A DNA stretch of 64,000 nucleotides from SAR324 cluster bacterium REDSEA-S27_B3 (GTDB taxonomy: Bacteria; SAR324; NAC60-12), in the NCBI GenBank assembly GCA_001627865.1, contig LUQO01000013.1, positions 44,714-108,713 on the forward strand. Reading direction: 5' to 3'. The position numbers and the translations under genes are program-made. Positions within the stretch are counted from its first letter, which is position 1. Each line of letters begins with the position of its first letter. Shown here piece after piece: positions 13,569-40,109 of this stretch. Under the pieces are notes generated by a model. It was given only the letters and a program-made list of their open reading frames with translations. It was not told the DNA's origin and did no database searches.

Positions 13569-13823
13569 AACAAGCCTGGAGAAGTTACTGAGCCAGTCTG
13601 GACATAAACTTACAAATTCAGCTGGCCATATCGGTAAAGAACGAAGGAGATGTTTCGCTCCTTTTGTATCTGGTATATAGATTGGAAAGAGAATTTGTGA
13701 TTGATATTTACGGTGTTAAACTGGGAATGATTTTTTCAGCCAAAAAAGCTTTGTCAGCTCATATTTGTTTCATGCAGAATTCGTGATTCCTCGGAAGACA
13801 ACTGAGTAATCTGAAAGGCATCT

Positions 13824-21769: not shown

Positions 21770-22321
21770 CTATAGTAAGTTGACCATAAAACCATGTGCT
21801 TCTAAACTGCCTTCGTTTTTTAAGTGATGTGGAAGGTCTGTGTGGTAACGCAATGTTTCTCCAGCACAAATTGACTGTAATTCATCACCAATTTTGACTG
21901 TCAGATTTCCGGAACAGAGAGTAATACTTTCCAGGCTTCCCTTTCCATGTGATTCTGAATCAAGTTCAGCGCTGGGCTCCGCGTTAAATTCGTACCACTG
22001 CACAGAAGAAACAGTGTCTAGTGTGCCCAGAATTCTCAGCCGGAATCCATTGTCTTCACTTGTCACCTCCGGAGTGGCGTTCCTGCTTAGTTTTTCAAAG
22101 CAGGTTGTTCCTCCTTTAACAGCGAGAACATTTTCCAGAGGACTTTCAAGTGCTTTGGTGATTCGCCAGATTGTGGCTAAAGTCGGATTACTGAGATCTC
22201 GTTCAATCTGTGAGAGAATTGATTTTGATACTCCTGATTTAGCAGCAAGTTGATCAAGAGTAAAATTGTGCTCCTGTCTCAGACGCTGAATTTCCTGGCC
22301 GACTTTAGGTGGTGATTCCAT
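21770..22321 (-). CDS. XRE-family HTH transcriptional regulator with C-terminal cupin domain
   Basis: HTH_XRE segment LDQLAAKSGVSKSILSQIERD plus cupin-like C-terminus. Start trimmed to internal Met (MESPPKVGQ) because the N-terminal extension of the track ORF is low-complexity and overlaps a promoter-like site. Confidence 0.6.
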   Translation of the reverse strand: MESPPKVGQEIQRLRQEHNFTLDQLAAKSGVSKSILSQIERDLSNPTLATIWRITKALESPLENVLAVKGGTTCFEKLSRNATPEVTSEDNGFRLRILGTLDTVSSVQWYEFNAEPSAELDSESHGKGSLESITLCSGNLTVKIGDELQSICAGETLRYHTDLPHHLKNEGSLEAHGFMVNLL

Positions 22322-22409
22322 TTCTGCATTACTTGTTTGATTTTCCTGATAATATAAGCGTAACAGATAATACTTGAAAAGTTTACTCAATAGATTTAAA
22401 AGGAAATGT

Positions 22410-22438
22410 TTTGACAAAATAGAAAGTCCTAGCTATTG
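22410..22438 (+). promoter_or_regulatory. Sigma70-like promoter candidate upstream of tusA / sHdr operon (TTGACA-17 bp-TATTGT)
   Basis: TTGACA at 22410-22415, 17-bp spacer, TATTGT at 22433-22438, ~100 nt upstream of tusA ATG. In the divergent intergenic region shared with the XRE-cupin regulator. Confidence 0.3.
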
Positions 22439-23028: not shown

Positions 23029-23403
23029 ATGGCTGATGAAGAAAAAATGACTGTGTTCGTGACTTCAGGTCCGGAAACTCCACAGCGGTGTGCGACACCG
23101 TTTTACATGGCTAACATTGCTGCAGCCATGGATAATGAGGCGGAAATGATCTTTCAAATCGATGGAGTGCTGCTGATGAAGAAAGGTATCGCGGAAAATC
23201 TTATGGCCAAGGAAGGAGGAAAACCGATTATTGACTTCATCCGTGAAGCCAAGGAGGCAGGAGTCGAGATGCGGGTTTGTTCTGCTGCGCTGCAGCTTCA
23301 CGAAATGACCGAGGATGATTTGATAGAGGAGTGCGACGGTGTGGTCGGCGCGGCTTACATGGTAGATGTAGGAATGGAAAGCGGAATAGTTCTTAACTAC
23401 TGA
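23029..23403 (+). CDS. dsrE3: DsrE/DsrF-family sulfurtransferase (DsrE3-type)
   Basis: DsrE-fold protein with conserved Cys region RVCSAAL; positioned between tusA and lbpA2 as in sHdr clusters. Confidence 0.7.
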   Translation: MADEEKMTVFVTSGPETPQRCATPFYMANIAAAMDNEAEMIFQIDGVLLMKKGIAENLMAKEGGKPIIDFIREAKEAGVEMRVCSAALQLHEMTEDDLIEECDGVVGAAYMVDVGMESGIVLNY

Positions 23404-23417
23404 CTGCGGAGAGTTGT

Positions 23418-23879
23418 ATGACCGAAATCAACAGCTGCCTGCTTCCGGATGAGTTGCAGTATCACATCGAGTTCAACGTCTGGCTCAAGGATAATGGAGA
23501 TGGAACATTTGATCTCGGCATGACCGACATCGCCCAGTCAATGGCGGGTTCAGTAATCCACTGCCGAGCAAAAGCGGTGGGCAAGAATGTCAAAAAAGGA
23601 AAAAGTGTTGCTACAGTGGAAAGCGGCAAATGGGTTGGTCCGGTCAAAACTCCCCTGACTGCGGAAATCATTGCCTGCAACGAAAGCATTGAAGCTGATG
23701 CTACCATCCTTAACAAAAGTCCCTACAAACAGGGCTGGATCGTACGACTCAAGCCCACCAACTTAGACGAGGAACAAGGCGAACTGGTTTCCGGAGACGC
23801 AGCAGTGGAGGGATTCAGAGGCTACATGGCCGAGAAGGAGTTCTCAAGTTGTATCCATTGTGAAGGCTTTGACAGTTAG
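23418..23879 (+). CDS. lbpA: GcvH-like lipoate-binding protein (LbpA-type, copy 2)
   Basis: Lipoyl-lysine motif TVESGKWVGPV aligned to GcvH ESVKA; ~150 aa. Immediately upstream of shdrC1. Confidence 0.7.
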   Translation: MTEINSCLLPDELQYHIEFNVWLKDNGDGTFDLGMTDIAQSMAGSVIHCRAKAVGKNVKKGKSVATVESGKWVGPVKTPLTAEIIACNESIEADATILNKSPYKQGWIVRLKPTNLDEEQGELVSGDAAVEGFRGYMAEKEFSSCIHCEGFDS

Positions 23880-23913: not shown

Positions 23914-24642
23914 ATGTCCATCTATGCTGACGCAAAATACAGTGAAGTACCTGTGGAAACAAAACAGGCACTGTTTGATGAAGTCAAAGCCGATATGCGC
24001 TATGAACACCAGCTTTACGGCTGTTACGAATGCGGTATATGTGTTGCTGCCTGTCCCTCGGCACGCTTCTATGATTTCAGTCCGCGGGTATTTGCTCAGG
24101 TCATGGCCCGTGAGGATGTTGATACATTTTACGAACTGTTAAATGACAGTGTCTGGGACTGCTCTCAGTGCTTTTCATGTACACGTTGTCCTAGGCAGAA
24201 CAATCCGGGTGCTGTCATCACCATTATGCGCGAGGTAGCGGTTAATCACGGTCTACAGTCCGCCAAGGAGGCGCTCAAGTCTTACAGCCGCATCATCTAC
24301 AAGATCATGTCCACCGGTACCCAGGTGGCACCTGACATGCTGCAGCCTGATTTCTTTCCGGATTGGGGTCCAGACGTAAAGCAGGTGTCTGAGAACCTCG
24401 ATGTATGGCGCAGGTGTGTTCCTCCGGAAACGATGCACACCACGGAACTGGCGTGGGACGTCAGCGAAAAAACCCGACTCGAGCTTTACATGATATGGAA
24501 ACTCACCGGCAACCTGGAAATGATCGAAAAAATCGATGAAGGTATCTTCATGATCCTCGAGGAGGTGATGGAGGAACTGCTGGAAGAGAATGGATACGAC
24601 ATTGACGATTTTGAGAACCTGCTTGAGGAGGACGAAGAATGA
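23914..24642 (+). CDS. shdrC1: HdrC-like iron-sulfur protein (sHdrC1)
   Basis: Two ferredoxin-type cysteine clusters (CYECGICVAACP, CSQCFSCTRCP). Confidence 0.75.
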   Translation: MSIYADAKYSEVPVETKQALFDEVKADMRYEHQLYGCYECGICVAACPSARFYDFSPRVFAQVMAREDVDTFYELLNDSVWDCSQCFSCTRCPRQNNPGAVITIMREVAVNHGLQSAKEALKSYSRIIYKIMSTGTQVAPDMLQPDFFPDWGPDVKQVSENLDVWRRCVPPETMHTTELAWDVSEKTRLELYMIWKLTGNLEMIEKIDEGIFMILEEVMEELLEENGYDIDDFENLLEEDEE

Positions 24643-24699
24643 TTTCAAATGCCTTAATTCAAAAATCAAAAACGGTTTCATCAAAATAAAGGAGATACT

Positions 24700-25902
24700 A
24701 TGCAGCAGACTTCCGCAGATAAGGTCTTTAACCCGCCAACGCTTTCATCTCGTGAATTCAAACGGGATAATCCTCCACCCACTGAGGATTACCGGGAGAA
24801 GCTATTCGAGTTGGAGAAGGCCGGTGAACTTGAAGTCCAAAGGGTTCCGGAGCCTTATGTGGAATTGGAAACCAAATACGGGAGAATCAAGAAAATACCC
24901 TATCAGATGACCTGGCATCACAAGTCATGCGGCCAATGCGGTCACATTCCGGGATACTCTACAGCCATTTTCTGGTTAAACCGGAAGCTCGGATTCGACT
25001 ACCATGACCCTCGTGATCAGACTTCCTGCACAGCCTGGAATTACTATGCGTCTTCAACATCTAACTCTGCGGCTCAGGCCGGTATCGCGGTGCGGAATTT
25101 TTCCCAGGCTAAAATCGACGGATACTTCCCAGTTATCCATTGCGGAACGAGTTACGGACATTACAAGGAAACCCGGGAGCAGCTACTACACTATCCTGTT
25201 CTGCGCAGGCAGGTGCGCAAGATTATGGACCGCCTCAAGATGCCCTTTGTGTTTCCCGAGGAAATTGTGCATTACTCGGAATGGGTGCACGCTATGCGAG
25301 ACCGGATTGCGGAGATGCAGGTACTCGATCTCAGTAATGTAACCGTCACCGTCCACCCGGCCTGCCATTACCATAAGCTGGTAGTTGAAGACGCTGTCTA
25401 TGATCGGGATCTTTTCGACGGGCAGCGGACGGCTGTCATCAGCGGACTGGTCGAGGCTCTGGGGGCCAGGGTGGGAGACTACTCAACCTGGCATGACTGC
25501 TGTGGTTTTGGGTTCCGGCACATTTTAGTCAGCCGAGACTTTTCCCGTTCATTCGCTACTACAAGAAAGATTGAGCGTATGAAAGAGGAAGTAAATCCAG
25601 ATGTTACCCTTACACATGATACCGGTTGTGTAACTACATTGGACAAAAGCCAATTTGCCGCTCAGGCTCATAAACGCAACGTAGGTATTCCAGTGATGTC
25701 TGACGCCCAGTTTGCGGCTCTGGCTATGGGTGCACATCCATACATTGTCTGTCAGCTTCACTGGCATGGTGTCGATATGAAACCTCTACTTGAAAAAATG
25801 GGAATTGATCATAAAAAGGCATGGGCCGAGTTCGAAGTCCAGGCAGAAAGAATTAAAGCCGGTGAAATCGAATATATAAGCTGGGAGGAAGCAGATGCCT
25901 GA
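24700..25902 (+). CDS. shdrB1: HdrB-like protein with CCG domains (sHdrB1)
   Basis: Cysteine-rich CCG-type motifs including WHDCCGFGF; ~400 aa. Confidence 0.75.
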   Translation: MQQTSADKVFNPPTLSSREFKRDNPPPTEDYREKLFELEKAGELEVQRVPEPYVELETKYGRIKKIPYQMTWHHKSCGQCGHIPGYSTAIFWLNRKLGFDYHDPRDQTSCTAWNYYASSTSNSAAQAGIAVRNFSQAKIDGYFPVIHCGTSYGHYKETREQLLHYPVLRRQVRKIMDRLKMPFVFPEEIVHYSEWVHAMRDRIAEMQVLDLSNVTVTVHPACHYHKLVVEDAVYDRDLFDGQRTAVISGLVEALGARVGDYSTWHDCCGFGFRHILVSRDFSRSFATTRKIERMKEEVNPDVTLTHDTGCVTTLDKSQFAAQAHKRNVGIPVMSDAQFAALAMGAHPYIVCQLHWHGVDMKPLLEKMGIDHKKAWAEFEVQAERIKAGEIEYISWEEADA

Positions 25903-26953
25903 AAATCCTGTACTGGTGATTGGAGGAGGACCGGCAGGTCTCGAAGCCGCCCGAGGGGTGGCAGACCTGGGCTATCATGTTAAACTTGTTGAAAAGGCCG
26001 AGCGACTGGGAGGAATGCCGATCCTTGCGGATTATGCTGCACTAACGCCGAACATGGTGAATGCTGAGGAAGCTATGGGAGAGATGGTCCAGCGCATCGA
26101 AAATGATGAGCTGATCGATATTCGGACTTCCACGGAAGTGATCCGGGCCTCCGGTTCTGCCCCTGCTCTCGAGATTGGTTTGAATGGGCCTGGAGGAGAG
26201 GAGGATATTCAGACTGGTGGAGTTATCGTGGCAACAGGATTCCAGCATTTCGATCCAGGCAAGGAAACACAGATGTACGGGTATTACGAATTTGACGACG
26301 TGATCACCCTCGTTGATACCGAAAGGATGCTCAAAGCAGGAAAATTCGTGAGACCCTCAACCGGAGAAGCGCCGAAACAGGTTTGCTTCATTCAGTGTGT
26401 TGGCAGCCGTGACCGTCAGATCGGTAACCCGTGGTGCTCAAAAGTCTGTTGCGGAATCGCCACAAAGGAAGCCATTGAAATTCGTCAACTGATACCTGAT
26501 TGTAGAGTGTTCATCTTCTACATTGACATGCGTATGTATGGGTTCTGGGAAGATGAAATCTACTGGAAAGCCCAGGAGAAATACAAGGTGAACTTCATCC
26601 GCGGGATTGTTACCGAGATCACCAAGCGTGGTGATCAGGTAGTGGTCAAGGGGGAGGATACGACCATGGGAAGACCGGTAGAGGTGCCTATGGACGTGGT
26701 CATTCTTTCTATTGGAATGGAGCCCAGCGAGGGGACGAAGAAGATGGGAGAACTGTTTCAACTGCCGTCGACCCATGGTTTCATAGAAAGCATCGGTGGA
26801 GCTTTAAACACAGTAGTAACAAGCGTACCGGGAATATTTGTAGCGGGTGCTGCAGCCGGTCCGGCGGACCTGGAGGACTCTGTTTCCATGGGTGGCGCAG
26901 CAGCGATGAAGGCGGCTGCCTTTCTTCGAAAGGCCAACCTGCGGGTTGCGTAA
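25895..26953 (+). CDS. shdrA: HdrA-like FAD/4Fe-4S flavoprotein (sHdrA)
   Basis: FAD Rossmann motif VIGGGPAGLEAA and HdrA signature CFIQCVGSRDRQIGNPWCSKVCC. Confidence 0.8.
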   Translation: MPENPVLVIGGGPAGLEAARGVADLGYHVKLVEKAERLGGMPILADYAALTPNMVNAEEAMGEMVQRIENDELIDIRTSTEVIRASGSAPALEIGLNGPGGEEDIQTGGVIVATGFQHFDPGKETQMYGYYEFDDVITLVDTERMLKAGKFVRPSTGEAPKQVCFIQCVGSRDRQIGNPWCSKVCCGIATKEAIEIRQLIPDCRVFIFYIDMRMYGFWEDEIYWKAQEKYKVNFIRGIVTEITKRGDQVVVKGEDTTMGRPVEVPMDVVILSIGMEPSEGTKKMGELFQLPSTHGFIESIGGALNTVVTSVPGIFVAGAAAGPADLEDSVSMGGAAAMKAAAFLRKANLRVA

Positions 26954-27705
26954 TGCTTTTTGATTCGCTGACGCTTGAAGAAGTCGTCGATTCCGAATCA
27001 GCCCTGGAATTCATGAAGGAAGCCACAAAGCTGGCCAGTTCTGCTGACCTGGAGGACCTCTCCGAGCGGGTTTCGCTCAAGGCGGAATGCTTCAATAAGT
27101 ATCTGAACCCGACAAGCGTGGAAGAACTGAAGGAGGAGCAGTTTGACCAGATCGTTCGTTTGATTTTTTCAATAGGACGCAAATCGAAGCGCCTGATCGC
27201 TGCCAACGGGTTCGAAAACCTTCGCGTCAGGATCAGTGAGCTACTGCATGGTGATGCACCTGTTGAGGAGCGCTTCAACGTTTTTGTCAAAGGTGTTGAA
27301 GGTGTTGAGGAAAAAATGCGGATTAACTTTGCCGGAGAACTGCTACATTTCTCAATGCCTGAGCGTTACTGGCTCTGGACAAACTGGATCTGGGATCCAG
27401 ATAACAACACGGGAGCTCTGCCATTGGTGGTTCAGGAGGAAGTTGATTTGCTTGGAGACACTCAGGGTGAGACGTATCTGAGGGTAGGCAAGGCGATGGC
27501 TTACGTGAACAAGGTTGGAAACGAGCGAGGTTATTCCCGAGTGGGTCATGGAACTTATGGGATCGATGTCTTCTTGGCCTGTGTTTACGCAGTGTACATG
27601 TACACGGTTTTCAGAGTAAAGCTGTCTGATGAATTCAACCGAATTCTTCCGGAACTGCCTGAACTGACGCGCCGCGTGCTTGGAGTGCAAAAATTAGAAT
27701 TGTAA
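26953..27705 (+). CDS. Hypothetical protein of the sHdr operon (sHdrH position)
   Basis: 250-aa ORF between hdrA-like and fused hdrC/B-like gene, translationally coupled (ATG overlaps upstream stop). Confidence 0.5.
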   Translation: MLFDSLTLEEVVDSESALEFMKEATKLASSADLEDLSERVSLKAECFNKYLNPTSVEELKEEQFDQIVRLIFSIGRKSKRLIAANGFENLRVRISELLHGDAPVEERFNVFVKGVEGVEEKMRINFAGELLHFSMPERYWLWTNWIWDPDNNTGALPLVVQEEVDLLGDTQGETYLRVGKAMAYVNKVGNERGYSRVGHGTYGIDVFLACVYAVYMYTVFRVKLSDEFNRILPELPELTRRVLGVQKLEL

Positions 27706-27708
27706 GTT

Positions 27709-28995
27709 ATGTCTGAACACAAATACGAAAAGTTTACGGAGAAGGAAGAGGCAGTTGTAGAGGGGATTGATATTTCCGGAATCTGGAACAGGATGTATGA
27801 GCCTCGGGAGCTTACGGAATATGATCTGACTTACATGGATAAGGTCACAGAAACTCCGGGCGCCGAATCGATGGGATGGTGCTATCAATGCGCCCAGTGT
27901 GTGGGTGTCTGCCCGGTGGATCATGTAGGCAGTTATGGCCCGCGTAAGCTTTTCCGTAAGCTTCAGACTGGGACTAACCTATTCGAAAGCGATGATCTCT
28001 GGCTATGCACAACCTGCATGAACTGCCTACGTGTTTGTCCGAAGGAAGTTGACATGATGAAGATCATGCCTGCTGTCCGGGAACAGGTTGTGCTCGAAGG
28101 AACCCTTCCGGGTGAACTCCAGGAAATGCTCCAGAACGTGTCCGAGTACGGAAACCCGATGGGCGAATCACCACGCAAGCGAGTGCGCTGGACAAAGGAC
28201 CTTGAGCAACCACCGAGAGATCTGTCGAAGGAAGACGGTTCAGAGTCGGTGGAGGTGCTTTGGTATGTCAGTGATTACTACGCCTACCACGGCCGTGGTC
28301 AGGACGCTGCGCGTGCTTTGACCCGGGTATTTAATCGTCTGGAAGTGGATTTCGGTATACTGGGTACTCTGGAAAAATGCGATGGTGATTCCCAGCGTCT
28401 TGTTGGTGAAACTGGACTGTTTGAGGAATTGGCCCAGCACAACGATGAACAATTTCAAAAATACAAACACGGCACCCTCGTTGTCACTGATCCGCACGCG
28501 TTTAACGCCTTCAAAAATCATTATCCGAAAGTGACAGGCAACGAATACCGGGTCGTGCATTACACACAGTACCTGAGCAATAGGCTGAAGGAACTTAAAC
28601 CACTGCTGGTTAAGCCTTACGAGAAAAAACTGACGTTTCATGATCCTTGCTACCTTGGCCGTCACAATGGTGAATATCAGGCACCGCGCGATCTGGTTGT
28701 CGCGATTCCCGGTGCGGAATTTATGGAGATGTACCGCTGCCGGGAACAGAGCTACTGCTGCGGAGGCGGAGGAGGGGGGATGTGGCTTGACGGGGTATCA
28801 GCAGATCACACTCGTGAACGCCTGTCGGAAAACCGTGTCCGTGAAGCCGTAGAAATCGGAGCTGAGGTACTAGTTGTTTGCTGTCCTTATGAGGTGTCCC
28901 GCTTCGAGGATGCAGTAAAATCAACAGACAATGAGGGAAAACTTGAAGTTCGTGACATTGCTGAAATCCTGGATTACTGTATGGATGGGGTTTAG
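27709..28995 (+). CDS. Fused HdrC/HdrB (HdrD-like) iron-sulfur CCG-domain protein (sHdrB3-type of type II sHdr clusters)
   Basis: N-terminal 2x[4Fe-4S] motifs (CYQCAQCVGVCP, CTTCMNCLRVCP) followed by CCG domains (CYLGRHNG..., CCGGGGGGMWL). Confidence 0.7.
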   Translation: MSEHKYEKFTEKEEAVVEGIDISGIWNRMYEPRELTEYDLTYMDKVTETPGAESMGWCYQCAQCVGVCPVDHVGSYGPRKLFRKLQTGTNLFESDDLWLCTTCMNCLRVCPKEVDMMKIMPAVREQVVLEGTLPGELQEMLQNVSEYGNPMGESPRKRVRWTKDLEQPPRDLSKEDGSESVEVLWYVSDYYAYHGRGQDAARALTRVFNRLEVDFGILGTLEKCDGDSQRLVGETGLFEELAQHNDEQFQKYKHGTLVVTDPHAFNAFKNHYPKVTGNEYRVVHYTQYLSNRLKELKPLLVKPYEKKLTFHDPCYLGRHNGEYQAPRDLVVAIPGAEFMEMYRCREQSYCCGGGGGGMWLDGVSADHTRERLSENRVREAVEIGAEVLVVCCPYEVSRFEDAVKSTDNEGKLEVRDIAEILDYCMDGV

Positions 28996-29001
28996 GACAA
29001 A

Positions 29002-29679
29002 GTGCACAGACTGATAAAGTTTGTAGAAAACCCCCTTCTGAACAAACATCTGGAGCGTCAGGCTACTAGTCTGGAAATGGGATTTCTGGATCCATCATCG
29101 GAAGACTTTGAGGAAGCCCCTCAAATAATTGTCGCTGAACTGGAACACTCTCAAGCAATAAACAGGATCATTGACTGGAAGCGTCGCTGGCCGGAATGTT
29201 ATGTGGCCTTATCCGTCAGTGAGCTGGATAGAGAACGATGGATTGCAGCAGAAAGTGCTGGTGCGGATCTGGTAGCCAACCGTGGAGCTTTGCCACGGCT
29301 ATTGCGTGACAAGATGAAACTGCTTCAGCAGGGAGATTCACTGACGAAACAAAAGCTGAGGTTAAAGGCCAAGGCTGTTGTCAATTCTGGTGACGGTTTG
29401 GTAGGACGGCTTCCTGATTCACCGGAAGATCCGATTGCGGTGTTTCGTATGGGAAACCAACTCTGTGCCGTCCGGGATGTTTGTCCGCATGCAGGGTTTT
29501 CTCTTGCGGACGGAGTGTTTGATCCGGTTTCAGGTAGCATTACCTGTCCAGAGCACGGCAGCCGCTTCCAGGTATGTACCGGAGAAAGACTGCGGGGACC
29601 GGCGGATTATCCCTTGAGGATCTATCCGGCATTAAGTGAGCAGGAAGAGATCTGGGTGGAAATTGAACAGGAAGCATGA
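29002..29679 (+). CDS. Two-domain protein with C-terminal Rieske [2Fe-2S] domain
   Basis: Rieske boxes CPHAG...(17 aa)...CPEHGSRF in the last ~100 aa. The ~120-aa N-terminal domain has no recognisable family. Co-directional and 6 nt after the shdrB3 stop. Confidence 0.6.
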   Translation: MHRLIKFVENPLLNKHLERQATSLEMGFLDPSSEDFEEAPQIIVAELEHSQAINRIIDWKRRWPECYVALSVSELDRERWIAAESAGADLVANRGALPRLLRDKMKLLQQGDSLTKQKLRLKAKAVVNSGDGLVGRLPDSPEDPIAVFRMGNQLCAVRDVCPHAGFSLADGVFDPVSGSITCPEHGSRFQVCTGERLRGPADYPLRIYPALSEQEEIWVEIEQEA

Positions 29680-29956
29680 TGAAACTTCCTGAAACAAAAA
29701 ACATGGTGCATGAAATGGGAACAATCCAGCTCAGTATTCAAATGATCCTTGAAGACTGCGGGATGGGGATTCCATTGAACTGGACTTGGCAGGCGTGCAA
29801 AATAGTGAACACAGTTCGTTCATCAAAGCAGTTTGCATCCCTGAGTCGAGCCGAACTTAAAGGCCTGGGGCAGCTCTTCAGGAAACGTATTGTTGCAGAT
29901 AGTTTTCGAAGGAGAAGAGAAACATTTTTATGCAAATGGAACTTGATAAGGTACAT

Positions 29957-30700
29957 ATGAAAGTTGCAGTTCTACTGAAACAGGTGCCTGACCTGGCTGA
30001 GGAACTTGAGGTCGATGAAAGTGGCAAGGCTTTGGATACGGAATACATCAAATTTCGGCTGAACGAGTATGACGAGCATGCTCTTGAAGAGGCAGTATGT
30101 CTCAAGGAGGCCGGTCAGGCTACGGAGATTGTTGCTTTTGCGCTTGATGGTGAAGAGGTGGACAAAGCGCTGTTTTCCGCCATGGCAAAAGGTGCAGACA
30201 AAGCGGTCAAGCTTACCGGACCAGAAGTTGAAGGGAGCAGACAGGCAGCAGCTCTTTTTGCAGAAACCTTGGGTATGGATTATGACCTGATCATGACCGG
30301 AGTGCAGTCGGTGGACGATCGTGATGGTATGATGGGGCCCATGCTTTCCTCGATGCTCAAGGTTCCATGCGTCAGTGTTGTCACCCGAGTCGAGGGCAAG
30401 GAATCCAGCGTGACTGTCCATAAGGAATATTTCGGAGGTTTGATGGCTGCCTTTGATGTACAACTTCCGGCAGTACTCGGGATCCAGGCTGCAAGACAAA
30501 CTCCGCGTTATGCACCTGTGAGCAAGGTTCGTCAGATTCAGCAATCTGCCATCATTGAGGAAAAATCTGCCAGCGGGGTTTCGGGCTCGGCCACAAGCAA
30601 GGTGACTACCATGGCACCACCGACCAAAACCGGAGGGGCAAAGATACTAGGTTCAGTTGATGAGCTGATGGAATTACTGAAGAAAAAAGGGGTCGCATGA
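29957..30700 (+). CDS. etfB: Electron transfer flavoprotein beta subunit
   Basis: MKVAVLLKQVPD N-terminus typical of EtfB. Start set at internal ATG 29957 with AAGG RBS. Confidence 0.8.
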   Translation: MKVAVLLKQVPDLAEELEVDESGKALDTEYIKFRLNEYDEHALEEAVCLKEAGQATEIVAFALDGEEVDKALFSAMAKGADKAVKLTGPEVEGSRQAAALFAETLGMDYDLIMTGVQSVDDRDGMMGPMLSSMLKVPCVSVVTRVEGKESSVTVHKEYFGGLMAAFDVQLPAVLGIQAARQTPRYAPVSKVRQIQQSAIIEEKSASGVSGSATSKVTTMAPPTKTGGAKILGSVDELMELLKKKGVA

Positions 30701-30734
30701 AAAAAATCAAATTCATACACAAAAAGGGTTAAAC

Positions 30735-31670
30735 ATGGGAAACGTACTGGTAATTACAGAACATATGAAAGGTGAGTTTCAGGACATTAGTTTTGAGATG
30801 TTGGGACAGGCTCGCAAACTGTCCACCGGAGGTAGTTGCAGTGCACTCGTGTATGGATCGATGAAGGATCGCTCATCAGAACTTGGCGCTGCTGACCGTG
30901 TACTTTGTGTTGGAGGAAGTGATGATTTTAATCCTGAAACTTATGCCAGTGCCGCACTTCAAATAATACAATCCGAATTCCCTGATCTTGTTTTGGTGGG
31001 ATCGACTTCTATGGGGATAGATCTCGCTCCAGTATTGGGAGTCTCGCTTGACCTTCCTATAATTTCCTATTGTTCCTGCATTGAAATTTCAGGTGACAAC
31101 TTCGAATTCACGAGCCAGCTTTATTCAGGCAAGATGGATGTCAAGTCGACTGCGCCGAAAGCAGTGGCAATGGTGCTGGCAGGATCCTTTTCTGCTGAGG
31201 ATGGAAAATCAGGTGGTTCTGCAAGTGTTGAGAATGTGACAGCAGACTTTGGAGTCGGAAGAGTGCAGTTCAAGGAACTGATCGAACCCGAAGCTGCCGA
31301 AGTGGACATTACCCAGAGCGACATCTTAGTTGCGGTTGGTCGTGGAATCGGTGGCAAAGACGACATCGAAGTGGCACAGGAACTGGCTAAAAACCTTAAC
31401 GCAGATCTGGCCTGTTCAAGACCTGTTGTTGATGCGGGATGGTTGCCCAAATCCTGTCAGGTCGGTAAGTCTGGACTTAAGGTAAACCCTAAAGTATACA
31501 TTGCCCTCGGAATCTCAGGTGCTCCGGAACACCTTGAAGGGATGAAGGATGTCTCAACCATCATTGCAATCAACACTGATAAGAATGCTCCGATTTTTGA
31601 TGTTGCTCATTACGGAATGACGGGAGACCTCTTTGACATCTGTGAAGAACTGGAGGATTCTCTTTCCTAG
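30735..31670 (+). CDS. etfA: Electron transfer flavoprotein alpha subunit
   Basis: EtfA FAD-binding C-terminal motifs (VGRGIG, SRPVVDAGW, IALGISGAPEHLEGM). Confidence 0.8.
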   Translation: MGNVLVITEHMKGEFQDISFEMLGQARKLSTGGSCSALVYGSMKDRSSELGAADRVLCVGGSDDFNPETYASAALQIIQSEFPDLVLVGSTSMGIDLAPVLGVSLDLPIISYCSCIEISGDNFEFTSQLYSGKMDVKSTAPKAVAMVLAGSFSAEDGKSGGSASVENVTADFGVGRVQFKELIEPEAAEVDITQSDILVAVGRGIGGKDDIEVAQELAKNLNADLACSRPVVDAGWLPKSCQVGKSGLKVNPKVYIALGISGAPEHLEGMKDVSTIIAINTDKNAPIFDVAHYGMTGDLFDICEELEDSLS

Positions 31671-31714
31671 TACAAAATCATGTGAATTTCCTGAATCCTT
31701 GACTCAAAGGAAGC

Positions 31715-33742
31715 ATGCTCAGTTCAACTGAACAAATTGCCTTCGTTCTTCTGGTGCTGGTCTGTGGGGGGGTGGCGTTCCAGGGTTTTAGGAGAATCTT
31801 TGTTATTGTTTCTCAGGGAAAGCCTTCTTACCGGACCGATGAGTTTCTATCGAGGCTGATCAAGGCCCTCATCGAGGTTGGTCTGCAGAAACCGCTCTTC
31901 AAGTCCCGACCGATTGTCAGTCTTTTCCACGCCTTCATCTTTTTTGGATTCAGTTTCTACTTGCTGGTCAATTTCAATGACCTGCTGGAGGCCTACGTCT
32001 CGGGGTGGACTACCATCGATAGCTCCCATCCTGTGGCGTTGGGATTTAATCTTTTTTCCGATCTGTTCAGTATCCTGGTTTTGATAGGAATAATTTATTT
32101 CCTCATTCGTCGTTTCATAGGCAAGCCCAGGGTTTTTGAATTCAATAGAAACGTCAAACTACAGACTAAAGTAGTGGGAGGAGGGATTCGTAGGGATTCT
32201 CTGATCGTTGGGATCTTCATCATCCTCCATGTTGGATCACGTTGGTTGGGGACTGCTTTTCATTTGGCGGAGCGGGAAACTACAGAATGGTCTTTACCCA
32301 CGGCAAGCTTGGTGGCACCGTTATTTTTTGGCTGGAGCGGTTTGGAAACAGGAATCCATGTCACCTGGTGGCTTGCAATGGGCTTGATTGTCTTTTTCCT
32401 TCCTTATTTTCCAAGAAGCAAACACATTCACATTTTCCTGGCTCCTCTGAATCTTGCTTTTACCAATCGTGAGGCCAAAGGCAAACTTCTTGACCCAGTG
32501 GATGGGTCCAATCCTGGTGCGGCAACCCTGGATGAACTTCCCTGGAAACAAGTCTTTGATTCCTATGCCTGCATCATGTGCACACGCTGCCATGAGGTCT
32601 GCCCTGCGCATCAGTCTGGGACGCCATTGAGTCCTTCCGCACTGGAAATCAATAAACGTTATTTTATCAACCAGCATGTTTCCGGATTGGCAAAAGGAAG
32701 TACCAAACTGGATTTGCTGAAGGATGCAATTTCAGAAGACGCGGTCTGGTCCTGCACCACCTGTATGGCCTGTGTGGAAGTCTGTCCGGTTGGCAATGAA
32801 CCGATGCAGGACATTCTCCAGATCCGCCGGAAACTGGTATTCGATGCACGGATGCCGGATGAACTTTCGGACGCCCTTCGCAGCCTTGATGAACAGGGTA
32901 ATTCTTTTGGAGAGTCCTCACGAAAACGTACACGCTGGACCAGGGAACTGAACTTCGAGATAAAAGATGCTTCCAAGGAATCGGTGGAATACCTCTGGTT
33001 TGTTGGCGATTTTGCATCCTTCAACCAGAATTGTGTGGAAAATACAAGAAGGGTGGCAGAGGTTCTCAATGAGGCTGGTGTTGATTTCGGAATCCTCATG
33101 AAAGAAGAGAAATCGGCTGGAAACGATGCCCGTAGGGTTGGAGAGGAAGGTCTGTTTGATGCGCTCGCGGAAGAGAACATCAAGACCCTCGAGAATTGTG
33201 ATTTCCAGCATATCCTGACTACTGATCCTCATACCTATAATACTCTGTTAAACGAGTATCCTTCAAAGGGTGGAGTTTATTCGGTGAAGCATTATTCAAC
33301 GCTGCTGCTGGAACTGATTCTATCGGGGAGGATCAAAATCATCAAACCTCTCAAAATCAAAGGCACCTATCATGACCCCTGTTACCTTGGACGATACAAT
33401 GGAATATTCGATGCCCCGCGTGAAGTGATGCAGCATTGTGGAGTTGAACTCCTTGAGATGCCCCGAAACCGAATCAATTCCTTCTGTTGTGGTGCAGGCG
33501 GAGGACAGGTCTGGTTAAAGGAACATGAGGAAATGAAGCAACGTCCCAGTGAAAATCGGATTGAGGAGGCCCTTCTACTCAATGTCGAATATTTCACTGT
33601 AGCATGTCCCAAAGATATGACTATGTATTCTGATGCCGTCAAGACCTCTGGTAACGAAGAGAAGATGGTAGTACGTGATTTGATTGACTATGTCTTTGAA
33701 GCAATGGATCTGCCGGAAGACTCAAGAAAATCAATCGAGTAA
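31715..33742 (+). CDS. Membrane-anchored HdrD/DsrK-like FeS oxidoreductase (Etf:quinone oxidoreductase EMO-like; N-terminal HdrE/NarI-like TM domain)
   Basis: 5-6 N-terminal TM helices with conserved His, then 2x[4Fe-4S] (CIMCTRCHEVCP, CTTCMACVEVCP) and CCG domains (CYLGRYNG, CCGAGGGQVWL). Confidence 0.7.
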   Translation: MLSSTEQIAFVLLVLVCGGVAFQGFRRIFVIVSQGKPSYRTDEFLSRLIKALIEVGLQKPLFKSRPIVSLFHAFIFFGFSFYLLVNFNDLLEAYVSGWTTIDSSHPVALGFNLFSDLFSILVLIGIIYFLIRRFIGKPRVFEFNRNVKLQTKVVGGGIRRDSLIVGIFIILHVGSRWLGTAFHLAERETTEWSLPTASLVAPLFFGWSGLETGIHVTWWLAMGLIVFFLPYFPRSKHIHIFLAPLNLAFTNREAKGKLLDPVDGSNPGAATLDELPWKQVFDSYACIMCTRCHEVCPAHQSGTPLSPSALEINKRYFINQHVSGLAKGSTKLDLLKDAISEDAVWSCTTCMACVEVCPVGNEPMQDILQIRRKLVFDARMPDELSDALRSLDEQGNSFGESSRKRTRWTRELNFEIKDASKESVEYLWFVGDFASFNQNCVENTRRVAEVLNEAGVDFGILMKEEKSAGNDARRVGEEGLFDALAEENIKTLENCDFQHILTTDPHTYNTLLNEYPSKGGVYSVKHYSTLLLELILSGRIKIIKPLKIKGTYHDPCYLGRYNGIFDAPREVMQHCGVELLEMPRNRINSFCCGAGGGQVWLKEHEEMKQRPSENRIEEALLLNVEYFTVACPKDMTMYSDAVKTSGNEEKMVVRDLIDYVFEAMDLPEDSRKSIE

Positions 33743-33880
33743 AAAAGGATTAAGACTTTTCTATAAATTGGCTTGATAAAATCAGCTACTCTGATAAAAA
33801 TATCACTATCTTTAAATGTTTTTGTTTCTAACAATTGAGCTAAATAAAGTACTTGAGTGAACTAAAGTAAAGAAAAGGTA

Positions 33881-35086
33881 ATGTTATTAGATACAACTGC
33901 AGAGGAGCCTTACAGCATAAAAGCGGCTTTCTGCAACGGCTATGAAAGGCTGTTCGATCGGCAATGGCCTATCTGGATTGGAGGGTTACTACTGGGAATG
34001 GGGAATGTGCTCCTGTTTGCCTTTGATAGACCCTGGACCGTCTCAAACGGTGTGAGAAACTGGGGTGACTGGTTTTTCAACCAAATCGGTGTAATTCAGA
34101 TGAATGTCCTTCCTCCAACTCTTTTTACCAGTTCAGTACTGTGTTTCGGAATGATCATCGGATCACTGGTGGCAGCATTGCTTGGCAGGCAGTTCCGGGT
34201 TCGTATGGCGCCAGCCAGGGAATTGTTCAAGGGGCTGCTCGGCGGAGTACTGATGGGAATCGGGGCTTCCCTCGCTTTCGGCTGCAATATAGGAGGTTTT
34301 TTTAGTGCAATCAGCGCACTGTCAATGGCAGGCGTGGTCATGATGGTCGGATTGATGGTAGGAGCATTTGTCGGGTTGAAACTGCTCATCTGGGAGATAG
34401 AGTATCTCCCAGCAACTTCCTGGGGGGTGCGACAAGTACCGAACAGGGATGACATGTCGGGTGTACCGAGTAGAGCCCAGCCAATTTCAGGGTTATTGGT
34501 TTTGCTGCTGTGTATCATTGTGATCTTCACTTACGATTCCTTTGATTATTCCGTAAGCGGCGGATTTATGCTCTTTGGACTGCTTGTAGGCATCGTCATG
34601 CAGCGTACACGCTTCTGCTTTGTAAGGGCTTTCAGAGACCCTTTCATGACGGGTGATGCGGAAGCTACTAAAGCAGTTGCACTTGCGGTCATCATCAGCG
34701 TAACCGGGTTCACAATCCTGAAATGGACGGATTTGAGGTCCTGGGATGTTTCTGTATTACCAGGTTTTTGGATTGGCAGTCTGATGGGTGGTATCATCTT
34801 CGGGATTGGAATGTCCCTTAGTGGTGGTTGTGCATCGGGTACTATCTGGCGGGCTGGAGAGGGACAGGTTAAACTCTGGGTCACACTTGTCACGTTTGCA
34901 CTGAGTACGTCCTACTTCAGGGACTGGCTAGTTGCTAGTGGATTGAGGGCTAAACTTGGAACTGAGCTTTTTTTGCCTGATGTTATTGGTTGGAAGATGG
35001 CACTAATCATCATTATTGCCATAATGTTATTTTGGTACTTGATGGCAGTTTGGAATGAAGTCAGCAAAAAATTGGTGGTGGTATAA
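33881..35086 (+). CDS. YeeE/YedE-family membrane protein (putative thiosulfate/sulfur-compound transporter)
   Basis: Two-repeat polytopic protein with conserved GCNIGG and GGCASG cysteine motifs typical of YeeE/YedE (TsuA-like). Confidence 0.7.
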   Translation: MLLDTTAEEPYSIKAAFCNGYERLFDRQWPIWIGGLLLGMGNVLLFAFDRPWTVSNGVRNWGDWFFNQIGVIQMNVLPPTLFTSSVLCFGMIIGSLVAALLGRQFRVRMAPARELFKGLLGGVLMGIGASLAFGCNIGGFFSAISALSMAGVVMMVGLMVGAFVGLKLLIWEIEYLPATSWGVRQVPNRDDMSGVPSRAQPISGLLVLLLCIIVIFTYDSFDYSVSGGFMLFGLLVGIVMQRTRFCFVRAFRDPFMTGDAEATKAVALAVIISVTGFTILKWTDLRSWDVSVLPGFWIGSLMGGIIFGIGMSLSGGCASGTIWRAGEGQVKLWVTLVTFALSTSYFRDWLVASGLRAKLGTELFLPDVIGWKMALIIIIAIMLFWYLMAVWNEVSKKLVVV

Positions 35087-35320: not shown

Positions 35321-36625
35321 ATGAAAAATAATTCAATTCTATTGGTAGCATTTGCGTTCTTAGCTGGAATAATTTCAGGATGTGTAACTACTGGCGGAGC
35401 AAAATTTGGAGCACCATCAAAAGGCATGAGTCCTGCGGAATATGAGTCTTTGGTTAGGCTGGACCCACAGAATACAATGAAGGCAAATTTTTCTGTAGTT
35501 AAAGGAATGGATGGATATTTCCTTATTGATAACCAAGGTGAAAGTACTATTTCGGTTGTAGACTATAATAAAGGGGAGACAATCAAAAAAATTAAGTTAA
35601 GTGACCCTCCTGGCACCTCTTTTAAACCCGCAGGGAATCATCACATTTTTGTAATTCCTGGCGGAAGATATGCTTGGTCTTCGCAGCGATATGAAAAAGA
35701 TGTAATGTGGACTATAGATTTAACAACCCATGAGGTAGTTGATACTTTCAGATTAAGTATGGGAGGTAAAACAATAAAAGCACCCTTGCATATTGGATTT
35801 GCATACAAATCCCCTTTGGCGGTAACAGGTAATATCTTAGATAAAAAAAATGGATATCTTACTTTTTTGAGAACCGACACTCGCCGTCCTTCCCACATAG
35901 TTGATCTGAGTTGTTCAGGAGCTAGGGACGCAATGTTCACATTCGATGACTCAAAAGTTTTTACTACTTGCCAGCAGGAACCAAAGGGGGCTTCGATTGT
36001 TGACGTAAGTGGAAGAAAAGAAATCAAATTTATTCCTATAAAGGGAGGGAGAGCTGGAGGAATGACTCCCGACGGGAAATATTTTCTAGTTGGAGCCTCA
36101 AAGGCAGTTGTCCTAATTGATACTGCTACAAATGAAATTCACAAAACCATCAAAGTTCCTGGTGGTGGAGGTAATTTCACTTGTCTTCCAGATGGATCAA
36201 AGTGCTATGCAGGTTTAAGGAAAGACAATTCAGTCGGAGTAATTGATATGGCGAGTCTTGAACTGATTAAAGTCATAAAAACCGGTAAAAACGGTAACCG
36301 ACTCTACTTAAATCCTGCAAATCCCAGATACGGAATTTTTACTAATGAATCTGGTAAATCGGAAACTGTATCTGTAATTGATACCCAGAATGATGTTAAG
36401 ATCATTGATATAGAGACAGGTCTGAAACCTCATAATGTTGCTTTTAATCCAGAAGGAACACGAGCAATTATTTCAACTCCAAAGGAAGAAGTAGCAACTC
36501 TTGTTGATACATCATCATCAGATCCTACTAAGTGGGAAATAATTACCACAGACATTGATTCGGGTATAGAAAATAACGGCGTGCGCTGGGTACCTAGTCC
36601 AAGTGCTATAATAGCTGCAATGTAA
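35321..36625 (+). CDS. Lipoprotein with YVTN-type beta-propeller repeats
   Basis: Lipobox LAGIISGC. Repeated ~40-aa units with D/N-x-S-V-I-D motifs. Low GC relative to upstream operon. Confidence 0.5.
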   Translation: MKNNSILLVAFAFLAGIISGCVTTGGAKFGAPSKGMSPAEYESLVRLDPQNTMKANFSVVKGMDGYFLIDNQGESTISVVDYNKGETIKKIKLSDPPGTSFKPAGNHHIFVIPGGRYAWSSQRYEKDVMWTIDLTTHEVVDTFRLSMGGKTIKAPLHIGFAYKSPLAVTGNILDKKNGYLTFLRTDTRRPSHIVDLSCSGARDAMFTFDDSKVFTTCQQEPKGASIVDVSGRKEIKFIPIKGGRAGGMTPDGKYFLVGASKAVVLIDTATNEIHKTIKVPGGGGNFTCLPDGSKCYAGLRKDNSVGVIDMASLELIKVIKTGKNGNRLYLNPANPRYGIFTNESGKSETVSVIDTQNDVKIIDIETGLKPHNVAFNPEGTRAIISTPKEEVATLVDTSSSDPTKWEIITTDIDSGIENNGVRWVPSPSAIIAAM

Positions 36626-36819
36626 GGATTTGAATCTAAAGATGATCAAATAATGCAAATTGCTGCATCAGAGTAGAATAATATAGCTGGTGGTCGAAAT
36701 TTTATAAATAGATTTTTCGGCCACCAATTTTAATGTGTCTTTCTGCTCTAGATAAATTATTTGTTTATTAGCAAATAAAATATTTGCTCTAATTTTAATT
36801 CACAGTCTAGGAGAATTGA

Positions 36820-37287
36820 ATGAAAAATATAGAAAATTTTTCAAGAAGGAAATTTCTTAACTATACGATGGTTGGAGGGCTGACAATTCCTCTCCTATCA
36901 GTAATTCCTTCATCAAATGACGCACATGGCGCAGTTTTTCAAACCCCAAAAGATTTAGAAAATTTGACGGAATTAGAAAGAATCCATTTGCCTAAAATAT
37001 CATTGCCACCAGTTGTTGAAGATGGTGCTAGTGCATCAATAGTTTGTAGTGTTGACCATCCAATGGATGAAGACCACTACATAAAAAGTATTCAAATTAT
37101 GAATTTTGCAGATCCTATTGTTATAAAAGGAAAATTTTTCCTTACCCCTGTTAACGGAGAAGCATATTTAAGTACTCAAATTCGTCTATCTGGAGGTGAA
37201 GGAACAGTTTGGGTAATAGCAGAGTGCAACAAGCACGGTAAATGGGCAGCAAGTAAAAAAGTGACTGTAGCAGCTGGAGGGTGTTAA
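36820..37287 (+). CDS. soxY: SoxY-like sulfur-carrier protein
   Basis: Tat signal SRRKFLNYTMVGG, SoxY-like core, C-terminal swinging-arm Cys (KKVTVAAGGC-stop; canonical GGCGG truncated to GGC). Confidence 0.65.
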   Translation: MKNIENFSRRKFLNYTMVGGLTIPLLSVIPSSNDAHGAVFQTPKDLENLTELERIHLPKISLPPVVEDGASASIVCSVDHPMDEDHYIKSIQIMNFADPIVIKGKFFLTPVNGEAYLSTQIRLSGGEGTVWVIAECNKHGKWAASKKVTVAAGGC

Positions 37288-37288
37288 A

Positions 37289-38905: not shown

Positions 38906-38946
38906 ATGAATACCACTGGCTTAAACATTTTAAATCGAGAAGAAGA

Positions 38947-39300
38947 ATGGCAGAAAAGATAAAGCCCCCTCGCATAAGAGTTTCCAGACGTATCAAAAAA
39001 AATAAGGTTTTCAAGGTGAAGGTTAAGTTTGACCACCCTTCATTCACAGGACTGGCAATGGCTGACGATACAACAGAGCCCGTTTTTAACAGAGCAAAGC
39101 CTGTAACTTTCATTAGAAATATGCTTGTATACTATGGAGATGAACTTGTCAGTCGTTTAAGTTTATCTTCAGGTATTGCAGATGATCCACTATTTACATT
39201 TAAATTAAAAGCTACTAAGGAAGCACCAGTAAAGATTGTTTTCATAGATAATTTTGGTAAAAGATGGGAAGCTTCCAAAGAAATAAAATTTAAAGGCTAA
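38947..39300 (+). CDS. soxZ: SoxZ-like protein
   Basis: Aligns to SoxZ pattern (IKPPRIRVS / KPRVKVP; VKFDHPSFTG; IVFIDNFGKRWE). 117 aa. Confidence 0.7.
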   Translation: MAEKIKPPRIRVSRRIKKNKVFKVKVKFDHPSFTGLAMADDTTEPVFNRAKPVTFIRNMLVYYGDELVSRLSLSSGIADDPLFTFKLKATKEAPVKIVFIDNFGKRWEASKEIKFKG

Positions 39301-39347
39301 AAGCAATTCATTTAGCCATTTGCTAACCAATAAAAAAATAGTTTATC

Positions 39348-40055
39348 ATGAAGAAATTTTCACAGATTTTTGTGATTTCTTACTGTTTTTCTTTTTTCTT
39401 GTTCCAGACAATTTTTGCTGGAACAGTGGTAGATAAGTTTAAAATTGAGGGAATAATTTCTATTGCGAGTACAAAAGCATTACAGTCTGAGCTTCTAAAA
39501 AAGCTTGATATTAAAATTTTAGATTTAAACCTGAAAAAAACTGATTCTGGATGGCCTGTTCTAAGAATTGAATATGATCCGGATATTATTTCGAAAAACA
39601 AAATTGAAACTGTTATTGGTGAAATAGAAGACCCGGCTGGACACAAGTATAAAGTTCATAAAGGGCCACTGATTGCTAATGCAAATCTTATAGATGAAGA
39701 GAATCAAGCAATGACGATATTAGGTGATATGACTATGGATTTAAAACAAGTTAATAATCCGACAGTCGATTTTGATTCTTCTATCAAACGCGGAAAGGAC
39801 GTGTTTATAAAAAACTGTGCTAAGTGCCATGGGTTGAATGGGAATGGATATGGAGTAGTTGCCCACGGATTTGCAACTTGGCCAAGACAGTTATGGGCTT
39901 GGTATAAAGCAGATAGTGCGGCTGATAGCTACTTGTATTGGATAATTGAAAATGGCAAATCAGATATGCCTCCGTGGGGACTTGTTCTTTCGGAGGATGT
40001 AAGATGGGATTTAATAAATTATATTAAAACAATAAAAAAACCTGAAGAAAATTAA
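39348..40055 (+). CDS. Monoheme c-type cytochrome (SoxX/SoxA-like)
   Basis: Signal peptide, single CAKCH heme-binding motif, downstream Met/Pro-rich region (SDMPPWG). Confidence 0.55.
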   Translation: MKKFSQIFVISYCFSFFLFQTIFAGTVVDKFKIEGIISIASTKALQSELLKKLDIKILDLNLKKTDSGWPVLRIEYDPDIISKNKIETVIGEIEDPAGHKYKVHKGPLIANANLIDEENQAMTILGDMTMDLKQVNNPTVDFDSSIKRGKDVFIKNCAKCHGLNGNGYGVVAHGFATWPRQLWAWYKADSAADSYLYWIIENGKSDMPPWGLVLSEDVRWDLINYIKTIKKPEEN

Positions 40056-40109
40056 TAATTAATATCCATAAATTGTTAAAAGCTTTATGAAACCATAATA
40101 ATCTCCAAT

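Follow-up and report, generated by a model that had tools for sequence, protein, structure and literature searches.

An open reading frame (ORF) of SAR324 cluster bacterium REDSEA-S27_B3 encodes a fusion of an aspartate-less, CheY-like pseudo-receiver with a Rieske [2Fe-2S] domain of the soluble ferredoxin type, and this protein is a recurrent, optional and lineage-restricted accessory of type II sHdr-LbpA-EtfAB-EMO clusters. The ORF lies on contig LUQO01000013.1, within a stretch of 64,000 nucleotides (nt) that we refer to as the window and whose numbering we use throughout, except where a related locus is named by its handle (L001 and so on). We are highly confident of both the domain identity and the accessory status. 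The novelty lies in the domain architecture and in an undescribed accessory of a known pathway, the fold types themselves being known: in the literature searched, we found no paper on sHdr and Rieske proteins together, none that describes a receiver-Rieske fusion, and no Rieske gene in published descriptions of type II clusters, including those of Sulfobacillus. This agrees with an earlier inspection of the DNA letters alone (hereafter the sequence-only reading), which had remarked that Rieske proteins are not part of described sHdr clusters. The ORF and its parts are as follows (aa, amino acids):

29002..29679, + strand: full ORF, pseudo-receiver-Rieske fusion, 225 aa, GTG start
29002..29331, + strand: aa 1-110, CheY-like (βα)5 pseudo-receiver, from AlphaFold2 secondary structure, Foldseek and a profile search against PDB sequences
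29137..29139, + strand: Glu46 codon, at the receiver phospho-acceptor Asp position, aligned to the Asp of PhoP 'IVDLGLPD'
29278..29280, + strand: Asn93 codon, at the probable receiver Lys position (K109 of CheY), 'GADLVANRG' aligned with the receiver motif 'GADDYLTKP'
29350..29670, + strand: aa 117-223, Rieske [2Fe-2S] ferredoxin-type domain, from Pfam PF00355, Foldseek and partial NCBIfam matches
29482..29496, + strand: aa 161-165, Rieske box I, C161-P-H163-A-G, with no second Cys after it
29545..29568, + strand: aa 182-189, Rieske box II, C182-P-E-H185-G-S187-R-F189, with no Cys between P and H

The Rieske boxes CPHAG and CPEHGSRF, to which the sequence-only reading had drawn attention at the C-terminus, are indeed present, and the domain that contains them matched Pfam PF00355 at E=4.4e-12 (46.2 bits against a cutoff of 20.3; aa 142-209). 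In an alignment of 73 sequences, from which all column counts given here are taken, the cluster ligands C161, H163, C182 and H185 were invariant (73/73), as were Ser187 and Phe189. The residues listed at the two disulfide-cysteine positions did not include Cys (A, F or Y at 166; R, E or Q at 184), and Phe stands where high-potential Rieske proteins have a Tyr hydrogen-bond donor, while Ser187 of the 'HGS' motif is a feature held in common with those proteins. We found no sulfur-carrier motif and no conserved additional Cys in the alignment of homologues, and no N-terminal membrane anchor or Tat signal, the N-terminus being folded α/β without a hydrophobic helix or twin-arginine motif. High-potential Rieske proteins of bc1 and b6f complexes and of arsenite oxidase have disulfide cysteines (CTHLGC ... 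CPCHGS), and absence of the disulfide and of the Tyr hydrogen bond accompanies low Rieske potentials. Because both have been lost in this family and the Ser has been retained, which may raise the potential somewhat, we expect from the residues present a low to intermediate potential, in the rough range of -200 to 0 mV.

Comparison with known Rieske proteins led to the dioxygenase ferredoxins. An AlphaFold2 model made from the 73-sequence alignment (mean pLDDT 92.7 and pTM 0.71 for the whole protein) matched CarAc 1vck in Foldseek at E=5.5e-8, with a target-normalized template modeling (TM) score of 0.84 and 34% identity; for residues 117-223, the matches were CarAc, BphF/BphA3 and the naphthalene and toluene dioxygenase ferredoxins, with target TM scores of 0.75-0.86 and identities of 22-34%. 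The best NCBIfam matches were HcaC (3.8e-15), AndAb (1.3e-10) and NirD (3e-9), with sulredoxin at 1.3e-3, but the equivalog cutoffs were not reached (HcaC, 56.1 against 150; PRK09965, 51.8 against 113; AndAb, 41.4 against 150). The predicted [2Fe-2S] domain is of the soluble ferredoxin type and homologous to Rieske-type ferredoxins. With the dioxygenase ferredoxins (CarAc 1vck, BphF/BphA3 1fqt/2e4q, the NDO ferredoxin 2qpz, and HcaC) it shares the fold, the CxH...CxxH ligands, the lack of a disulfide and the soluble character, and we also count as a likeness that these ferredoxins partner a Pyr_redox_2-type flavoprotein. They differ from it in being single-domain proteins of ~105 aa whose genes accompany those of an oxygenase and a dedicated reductase, whereas the window protein has an extra 110-aa pseudo-receiver, an 'HGS' box II, no oxygenase nearby, and scores under every NCBIfam equivalog cutoff. 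Since those cutoffs were missed and no oxygenase gene occurs in the window cluster or related loci, we do not class it as a dioxygenase ferredoxin. Its sequence similarity to NirD/Rieske_2 small subunits and archaeal sulredoxin was weak and below family cutoffs throughout; these are small Rieske modules found on flavoenzymes or, in sulfur-metabolizing archaea, without an assigned role, and many NirD proteins lack the cluster ligands, while sulredoxin is a high-potential protein with a disulfide.

The N-terminal domain, which the sequence-only reading had been unable to recognize, can now be identified. In the AlphaFold2 model, strands at residues 4-7, 42-46, 67-71 and 89-91 with helices between them form a clean (βα)5 unit, and Foldseek matched this unit to receivers at E values of ~2e-5 to 2e-4 with target TM scores of up to 0.67, the matches comprising KdpE, the orphan regulator HP1043, RcsB, LiaR, DrrB and PhoP as well as the receiver-like TadZ and CpaE. 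When a profile hidden Markov model of the domain was run against all PDB sequences, receivers made up 10/16 matches, headed by PhoP (E=0.006), a LuxR-type regulator (0.016) and KdpE (0.039), although these receiver matches were weak (E 0.006-1.4). The family motif P-x-x-I-V-x-E-L-E-L-P-G aligned on P-D-I-A-I-V-D-L-G-L-P-D of PhoP, which is why we place Glu46 at the phospho-acceptor position. The residues found at the receiver catalytic positions were as follows:

Position 46, phospho-acceptor: canonical Asp; Glu in 65, Asp in 3 and Gln in 3 of 73 sequences
Position 10, second acidic residue (DD2): canonical Asp; Asp in 35 and Asn in 34 of 73 sequences
Position 71, Thr/Ser position: canonical Thr or Ser; Ser in 55 and Ala in 15 of 73 sequences
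Position 93, probable Lys position: canonical Lys; Asn in 73/73 sequences

The five-residue catalytic set DD, D, T/S and K is thus not intact in this family, and residues 1-120 gave no Pfam match, to PF00072 or otherwise, even at E<=10. Because the domain failed both the PF00072 model and the catalytic-residue tests, we call it a pseudo-receiver, as defined by Bourret et al., who name D to Glu and DD2 to Asn as common replacements (10.1101/2025.06.23.661182). It is an aspartate-less pseudo-receiver and cannot be phosphorylated in the canonical way. It shares the (βα)5 CheY fold and the loss of catalytic residues with plant PRRs, fungal Rim15p, HP1043 (2pln) and TadZ/CpaE (4lda/4dn6), and it carries both of the common swaps, with a function that is presumably phosphorylation-independent; it departs from them in its invariant Asn in place of Lys, where Arg is the usual substitute, and in escaping PF00072 recognition. 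Its fusion partner is a redox domain in place of a DNA-binding, ATPase or enzymatic output. Conservation within the domain peaked at aa 75-96, which cover α4, β5 and the start of α5, and in response regulators the α4-β5-α5 face is the customary surface for dimerization and output.

We found 549 homologues of the protein in databases, and this number, together with the invariant ligands, places the ORF far beyond chance. Full-length homologues are ~220-236 aa long and 42-78% identical to the window protein; conservation over the full length extends to at least five phyla, with 26 invariant columns that include all cluster ligands. Depositors assigned them to SAR324, Neomarinimicrobiota, Anaerolineae, Acidobacteria, Dehalococcoidia, Limnocylindrales and others, and they are publicly annotated as "Rieske 2Fe-2S domain-containing protein" or "hypothetical", with one JGI record adding "CheY-like". 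Residues 1-25 can be aligned with homologues from other phyla, which makes the GTG start credible. A phmmer search with the N-domain alone against 1.84 billion cluster representatives gave 38 matches at E<=1e-3, all of them <=297 aa, and a Rieske domain was present in seven of the ten that were scanned; the other three (P0253, P0257, P0264) proved to be frameshifted or chimeric high-GC translations and were rejected as other architectures. Judged by these searches, the N-domain appears to be found only in the Rieske fusion. Separately, the near-identical protein P0278 was seen on 437 contigs and is in that sense abundant, and near-identical proteins of the P0277/P0278 cluster are labeled both Arenicellales bacterium and Candidatus Neomarinimicrobiota. 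L007 (72% identity) is labeled uncultured Pseudomonadota, and 63%-identical relatives are labeled SAR324; published surveys report only type I sHdr in Pseudomonadota, so that a check may be needed of either the binning or the survey statement.

To assess linkage, the window cluster proteins were compared with every retrieved locus by tblastn, alongside called genes. In 15 of the 18 loci that had a full-length homologue and informative flanks (L001, L003-L012, L016, L024, L028, L031), the gene was in or beside sHdr/LbpA/Etf/EMO genes, and these loci span Marinisomatota, SAR324, Acidobacteria, Chloroflexota and Actinomycetes; the ORF is therefore conserved in type II clusters of several phyla, a co-occurrence on which the sequence-only reading had made its proposal depend. 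Two partial matches (L023, L038) also adjoin shdr genes. The position of the gene varied. It lies between shdrB3 and etfB in the Marinisomatota and SAR324-like contigs (L004, L005, L008-L012), where it is mid structural operon and 6-8 nt 3' of shdrB3; 3' of emo in a metagenome-assembled genome (MAG) of Acidobacteria (L001); a few genes past lbpA in Actinomycetes (L024, L028, L031) and in L006; and, in Chloroflexota (L003, L016), directly past an ArsR-type gene and divergent from tusA-dsrE-shdr...emo. This varying position within the cluster favors functional linkage over frozen synteny. In the three remaining loci (L019, L021, L022; Chloroflexota), 10-kb flanks held no sHdr genes, and in two of them the neighbor is an IMPDH/FMN-dehydrogenase-family gene. 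Conversely, the gene was absent within +/-10 kb, by called genes and tblastn, of all six type II clusters that we seeded from sHdrB3 (L087-L092: Chloroherpeton thalassium, a Poseidoniia archaeon, a Myxococcota MAG and three further MAGs), and for this reason we regard it as an accessory and not as a core component.

The immediate surroundings of the ORF were largely as the sequence-only reading had described them. The ORF, on the same strand, begins 6 nt after the stop codon (TAG, 28993-28995) of shdrB3, which encodes a fused HdrC/HdrB-like protein (shdrC2/B2) with 4Fe-4S dicluster and CCG domains, and it is embedded in an sHdr-Etf operon. Type II clusters are defined as shdrC1B1AHB3-etfAB-emo (PMC11094781, whose shdr gene names we follow), with shdrC1B1AHB3 and etfAB in one syntenic cluster as the criterion; the genes at 23914-31670 meet this definition, and the window holds the full canonical gene set in canonical order together with dsrE, lbpA and tusA. 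The flanking genes are:

21770-22417: XRE-cupin regulator gene, upstream
23029-23403, + strand: dsrE, upstream
23418-23879, + strand: lbpA, upstream
23914-24642, + strand: shdrC1, upstream
24700-25902, + strand: shdrB1, upstream
25895-26953, + strand: shdrA, upstream; Pyr_redox_2-type flavoprotein fold
26953-27705, + strand: shdrH, upstream; 250-aa hypothetical gene
27709-28995, + strand: shdrB3, upstream
29680..29929, + strand: spacer between the ORF and etfB, ~250 nt, holding the 94-aa orf94 (29676-29960)
29930-30700, + strand: etfB, downstream
30735-31670, + strand: etfA, downstream
31715-33742, + strand: emo, downstream; 675-aa membrane Fe/S-CCG protein
33881-35086, + strand: YeeE/YedE-family transporter, downstream (PF04143, E=1e-58)

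The ORF precedes etfB, as had been noted, but does not directly adjoin it, given the ~250-nt spacer. The orf94 in this spacer overlaps both neighboring genes, was kept only in the 99%-identical locus L008, had its similarity in L005 spread across two reading frames, and gave no family matches in Pfam or NCBIfam; it is probably not a gene. For the spacer itself there was no Rfam match, and a promoter and terminator scan gave nothing over background. The GC content of the ORF (0.506) and its codon adaptation index (CAI, measuring adaptation to cluster codon usage; 0.778) fall within the ranges of its neighbors (0.47-0.52 and 0.76-0.81, respectively), which leads us to reject a recent insertion; the deviating codon usage that the sequence-only reading had held out as grounds for rejecting its proposal is not seen. 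We also observed that in L004 (ERZ1742172 NODE_21; last 3 kb of an 80-kb contig) the sHdr proteins are 99-100% identical to those of the window, and that nucleotide identity, compared over window positions 28750-29700, is ~98-100% over the aligned part of shdrB3, ~80% from about 28,760 through the Rieske gene, and ~60-70% in etfB. This drop is explained either by recombination with its junction at the shdrB3 3' end or by a contig end that is chimeric.

A second set of genes bearing on LbpA lies farther upstream in the window, and no LipT-like gene was seen around 8920-15548:

8920-9351: second lbpA
9351-10481: slpl, after the second lbpA
10399-11445 and 11504-12613: two radical-SAM lipS-like genes
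12576-13568: lplA-like gene
13824-15548: second SoxB-like metallophosphoesterase/5'-nucleotidase gene

As to function, our preferred reading, held tentatively, is that of a docked one-electron carrier or adaptor on the route from sHdr to Etf/EMO. The Rieske domain would be a one-electron shuttle of low to intermediate potential, lying between the dihydrolipoamide/sHdr Fe/S clusters and Etf/menaquinone, that joins the electron exit of the sHdr complex, most plausibly from sHdrA or sHdrB3, towards EtfAB/EMO; the pseudo-receiver would be a constitutive dimerization or docking module whose conserved α4-β5-α5 face tethers the ferredoxin to its partner. Since the gene is missing from many type II clusters, we assign the protein a modulating role only, in which it would optimize or re-route electron flow and not form an essential link. 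The classical partner of a Rieske ferredoxin is a Pyr_redox_2-type flavoprotein, as in BphA4-BphA3, and the structure of this pair (PDB 2yvj) was among our Foldseek matches. We favor the carrier because sHdrA has this very fold, because in the window lineage the gene is mid-operon and 6 nt behind a structural gene, because a potential between those of sHdr/dihydrolipoamide and Etf/menaquinone would fit, and because in two Chloroflexota loci the sHdr-unlinked gene adjoins a flavoenzyme-family gene. That GC content and CAI equal those of the neighbors was also counted for a carrier over a regulator. In type II clusters as canonically described, no gene stands between shdrB3 and etfB (PMC11094781), whereas the window has an extra, non-universal member there. 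By analogy only, FixX of FixABCX is likewise a small Fe/S protein encoded with Etf and a quinone reductase, and is thought to be a single-electron relay. FixX is, however, [4Fe-4S] ferredoxin-like, a core component of its system and without a receiver domain, and it is not homologous to the window protein.

Several observations weigh against a carrier. A receiver-derived domain is a hallmark of signaling; in Chloroflexota L003, L016, L017 and L020 the gene is directly past an ArsR-type regulator and divergent from the structural operon; its absence from 6/6 sampled clusters means that sHdr-to-Etf electron transfer does not need the protein; and the Rieske fusion evolves faster than the core proteins, the L005 protein being 65% identical to that of the window, whereas the sHdr subunits of that locus show 91-97% and its Etf and EMO proteins 83-88% identity. 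An accessory, fast-evolving and patchy gene suits a regulator, and the chief rival to the carrier is a redox-sensing transducer: oxidation or reduction of the Rieske cluster (reporting the quinone/Etf pool, O2 or sulfane load) would shift the conformational equilibrium of the pseudo-receiver independently of phosphorylation, and the pseudo-receiver would bind an ArsR/sHdrR-like or XRE factor, or an sHdr/Etf subunit, and so tune expression or activity. The N-domain keeps both the conserved α4-β5-α5 face and an acidic pocket (D/N10, E46, E48), and Glu-for-Asp pseudo-receivers are known to signal without phosphorylation (10.1101/2025.06.23.661182). The gene is immediately 3' of an ArsR-type helix-turn-helix gene in the four Chloroflexota loci just named, and a ~170-aa winged-helix-like protein is encoded next after it in Marinisomatota L010-L012; however, the ArsR adjacency is limited to one phylum, the winged-helix-like gene also occurs without a Rieske gene (L091), and regulator genes seldom occupy a mid-operon site 6 nt past a structural gene such as the one seen in the window and its relatives. 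Moreover, we know of no Rieske domain that serves as a sensory module, and we consider such a transducer rather unlikely. Slightly less likely still is a self-contained redox switch, in which a redox change at the Rieske cluster would be passed to the pseudo-receiver so that its α4-β5-α5 face engages or releases an sHdr, Etf or ArsR/sHdrR-type partner. Were such a switch real, the electron outflow or the expression of cytoplasmic sulfur oxidation would be gated by the redox state of the Etf/quinone pool, the protein would be the first sensory module built on a Rieske cluster, and receiver-derived domains would gain a new output logic.

We see little chance that the protein is instead an electron donor for LbpA maturation, feeding the radical-SAM lipoyl synthases LipS1/LipS2 in place of LipT in clusters that lack LipT, a protein for which a role was proposed in PMC11094781. 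The gene does adjoin lplA/lipS/lbpA in L001 and L006, the window has lbpA2-slpl-lipS-lipS-lplA (8920-13568) with no LipT-like gene seen, and a LipT-like gene is present in L089, which is without the Rieske fusion; but both genes are missing from the stretches of L087 and L090 covered here, and in the window the maturation genes lie ~15 kb away from the Rieske gene, which is itself part of the shdr-etf operon. Rieske ferredoxin potentials are, in addition, far too positive for reducing radical-SAM clusters. The sequence-only reading had put forward a high-potential [2Fe-2S] carrier, or a sulfur-substrate-binding adaptor, mediating between the sHdr/LbpA couple and the Etf/EMO module. As an essential bridge of that kind the protein is highly improbable: its location between shdrB3 and etfB and the Ser187 'HGS' that it shares with high-potential Rieske proteins speak for it, whereas the disulfide cysteines are absent from the 73 sequences, Phe replaces the Tyr hydrogen-bond donor, the closest relatives are low-potential Rieske ferredoxins, and the gene is missing from all six other type II clusters. 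Nothing supports the sulfur-binding adaptor, there being no sulfur-carrier motif or conserved extra Cys. Of that proposal, the high potential finds no support and the obligatory link falls away, while a mediating role remains plausible, as in the docked carrier. Least credible of all is a hitchhiking or decaying gene with no part in sulfur oxidation; the patchy spread, the evolution faster than that of core genes and the apparent mosaic 5' junction in L004 would suit such a gene, but the conservation across phyla described above, invariant ligands included, the recurrent cluster linkage despite shuffled gene order and the native codon usage all argue against it.

Small genes recur beside the fusion gene. 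A protein of ~145-175 aa with weak winged-helix character recurs in type II clusters of several phyla, 3' of the Rieske gene or of emo; it is not in the window, and we found no mention of it in the literature searched. A second recurrent protein in these clusters, ~97 aa long, has two C2H2-like CxxC...HxxxxH motifs and 36-67% identity between phyla; it is encoded directly 3' of the Rieske gene in L001 and L015, while tblastn found none in L087-L092, the clusters without a Rieske gene, nor in the window. These genes were located at:

L010 4391-4906, L011 10693-11220, L012 6736-7260, L001 11006-11506, L006 2325-2759 and L091 15193-15633: winged-helix-like gene
L001 10700-10993, L015 589-849, L006 2760-3092, L024 7876-8133, L028 8067-8342 and L031 2544-2822: C2H2-like gene

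We dropped both as obligate partners, since the window has neither and the former is found in L091 in the absence of a Rieske gene. A single conserved small downstream partner was likewise dropped, because orf94 of the window, the C2H2-like protein of L001 and a membrane protein of L003 show no relationship to one another. In Chloroflexota, a 4-nt overlap joins the Rieske gene to a gene for a conserved 119-aa hydrophobic, probably membrane, protein (L003 10696-11055; L020 900-1256; 68% identity between the two), and the ArsR-type gene, the Rieske gene and the gene for the 119-aa protein resemble a three-gene unit divergent from the shdr operon.

Elsewhere in the window, the YeeE/YedE-family gene (33881-35086) is directly 3' of emo and is conserved in L005, L007 and L008. 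SoxT transporters have been reported to be completely absent from genomes with type II sHdr (PMC11582611), and the window transporter may belong to a different YeeE subfamily or be an exception to this absence. Measured in 2-kb windows, GC content is ~0.45-0.50 in the shdr-etf-emo block (24000-34000) and 0.36-0.39 in the soxYZ/soxB/cytochrome c block (36000-42000), against a mean of 0.437 for the whole window; the sHdr and sox modules may have different histories. Further downstream, the segment 43435-47060 looks like a sulfur-carrier-protein-based thiol biosynthesis module:

43435-43998: ThiF-family gene, upstream of the JAB-PLP fusion
44805-47060: 751-aa fusion of a JAB-domain protein with a Cys/Met-metabolism PLP (pyridoxal phosphate) enzyme

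Should the protein be only a dispensable ferredoxin, the result would be a modest one, adding one more accessory gene to a variable cluster, and its dispensability limits the surprise of the finding. The repertoire of pseudo-receivers, whose function is largely unknown outside plants (Bourret et al., 10.1101/2025.06.23.661182), nevertheless gains a new kind of partner, a redox cofactor domain. Of the steps of the sHdr-LbpA pathway, electron exit from the sHdr complex is understood least, especially in the genetically uncharacterized type II, and a conserved, previously unremarked Fe/S protein inside the type II operon of abundant marine lineages offers a concrete handle on it. The patchy spread of the fusion gene provides natural comparisons of clusters with and without it, and as an entry point to sHdr electron exit it stays testable.

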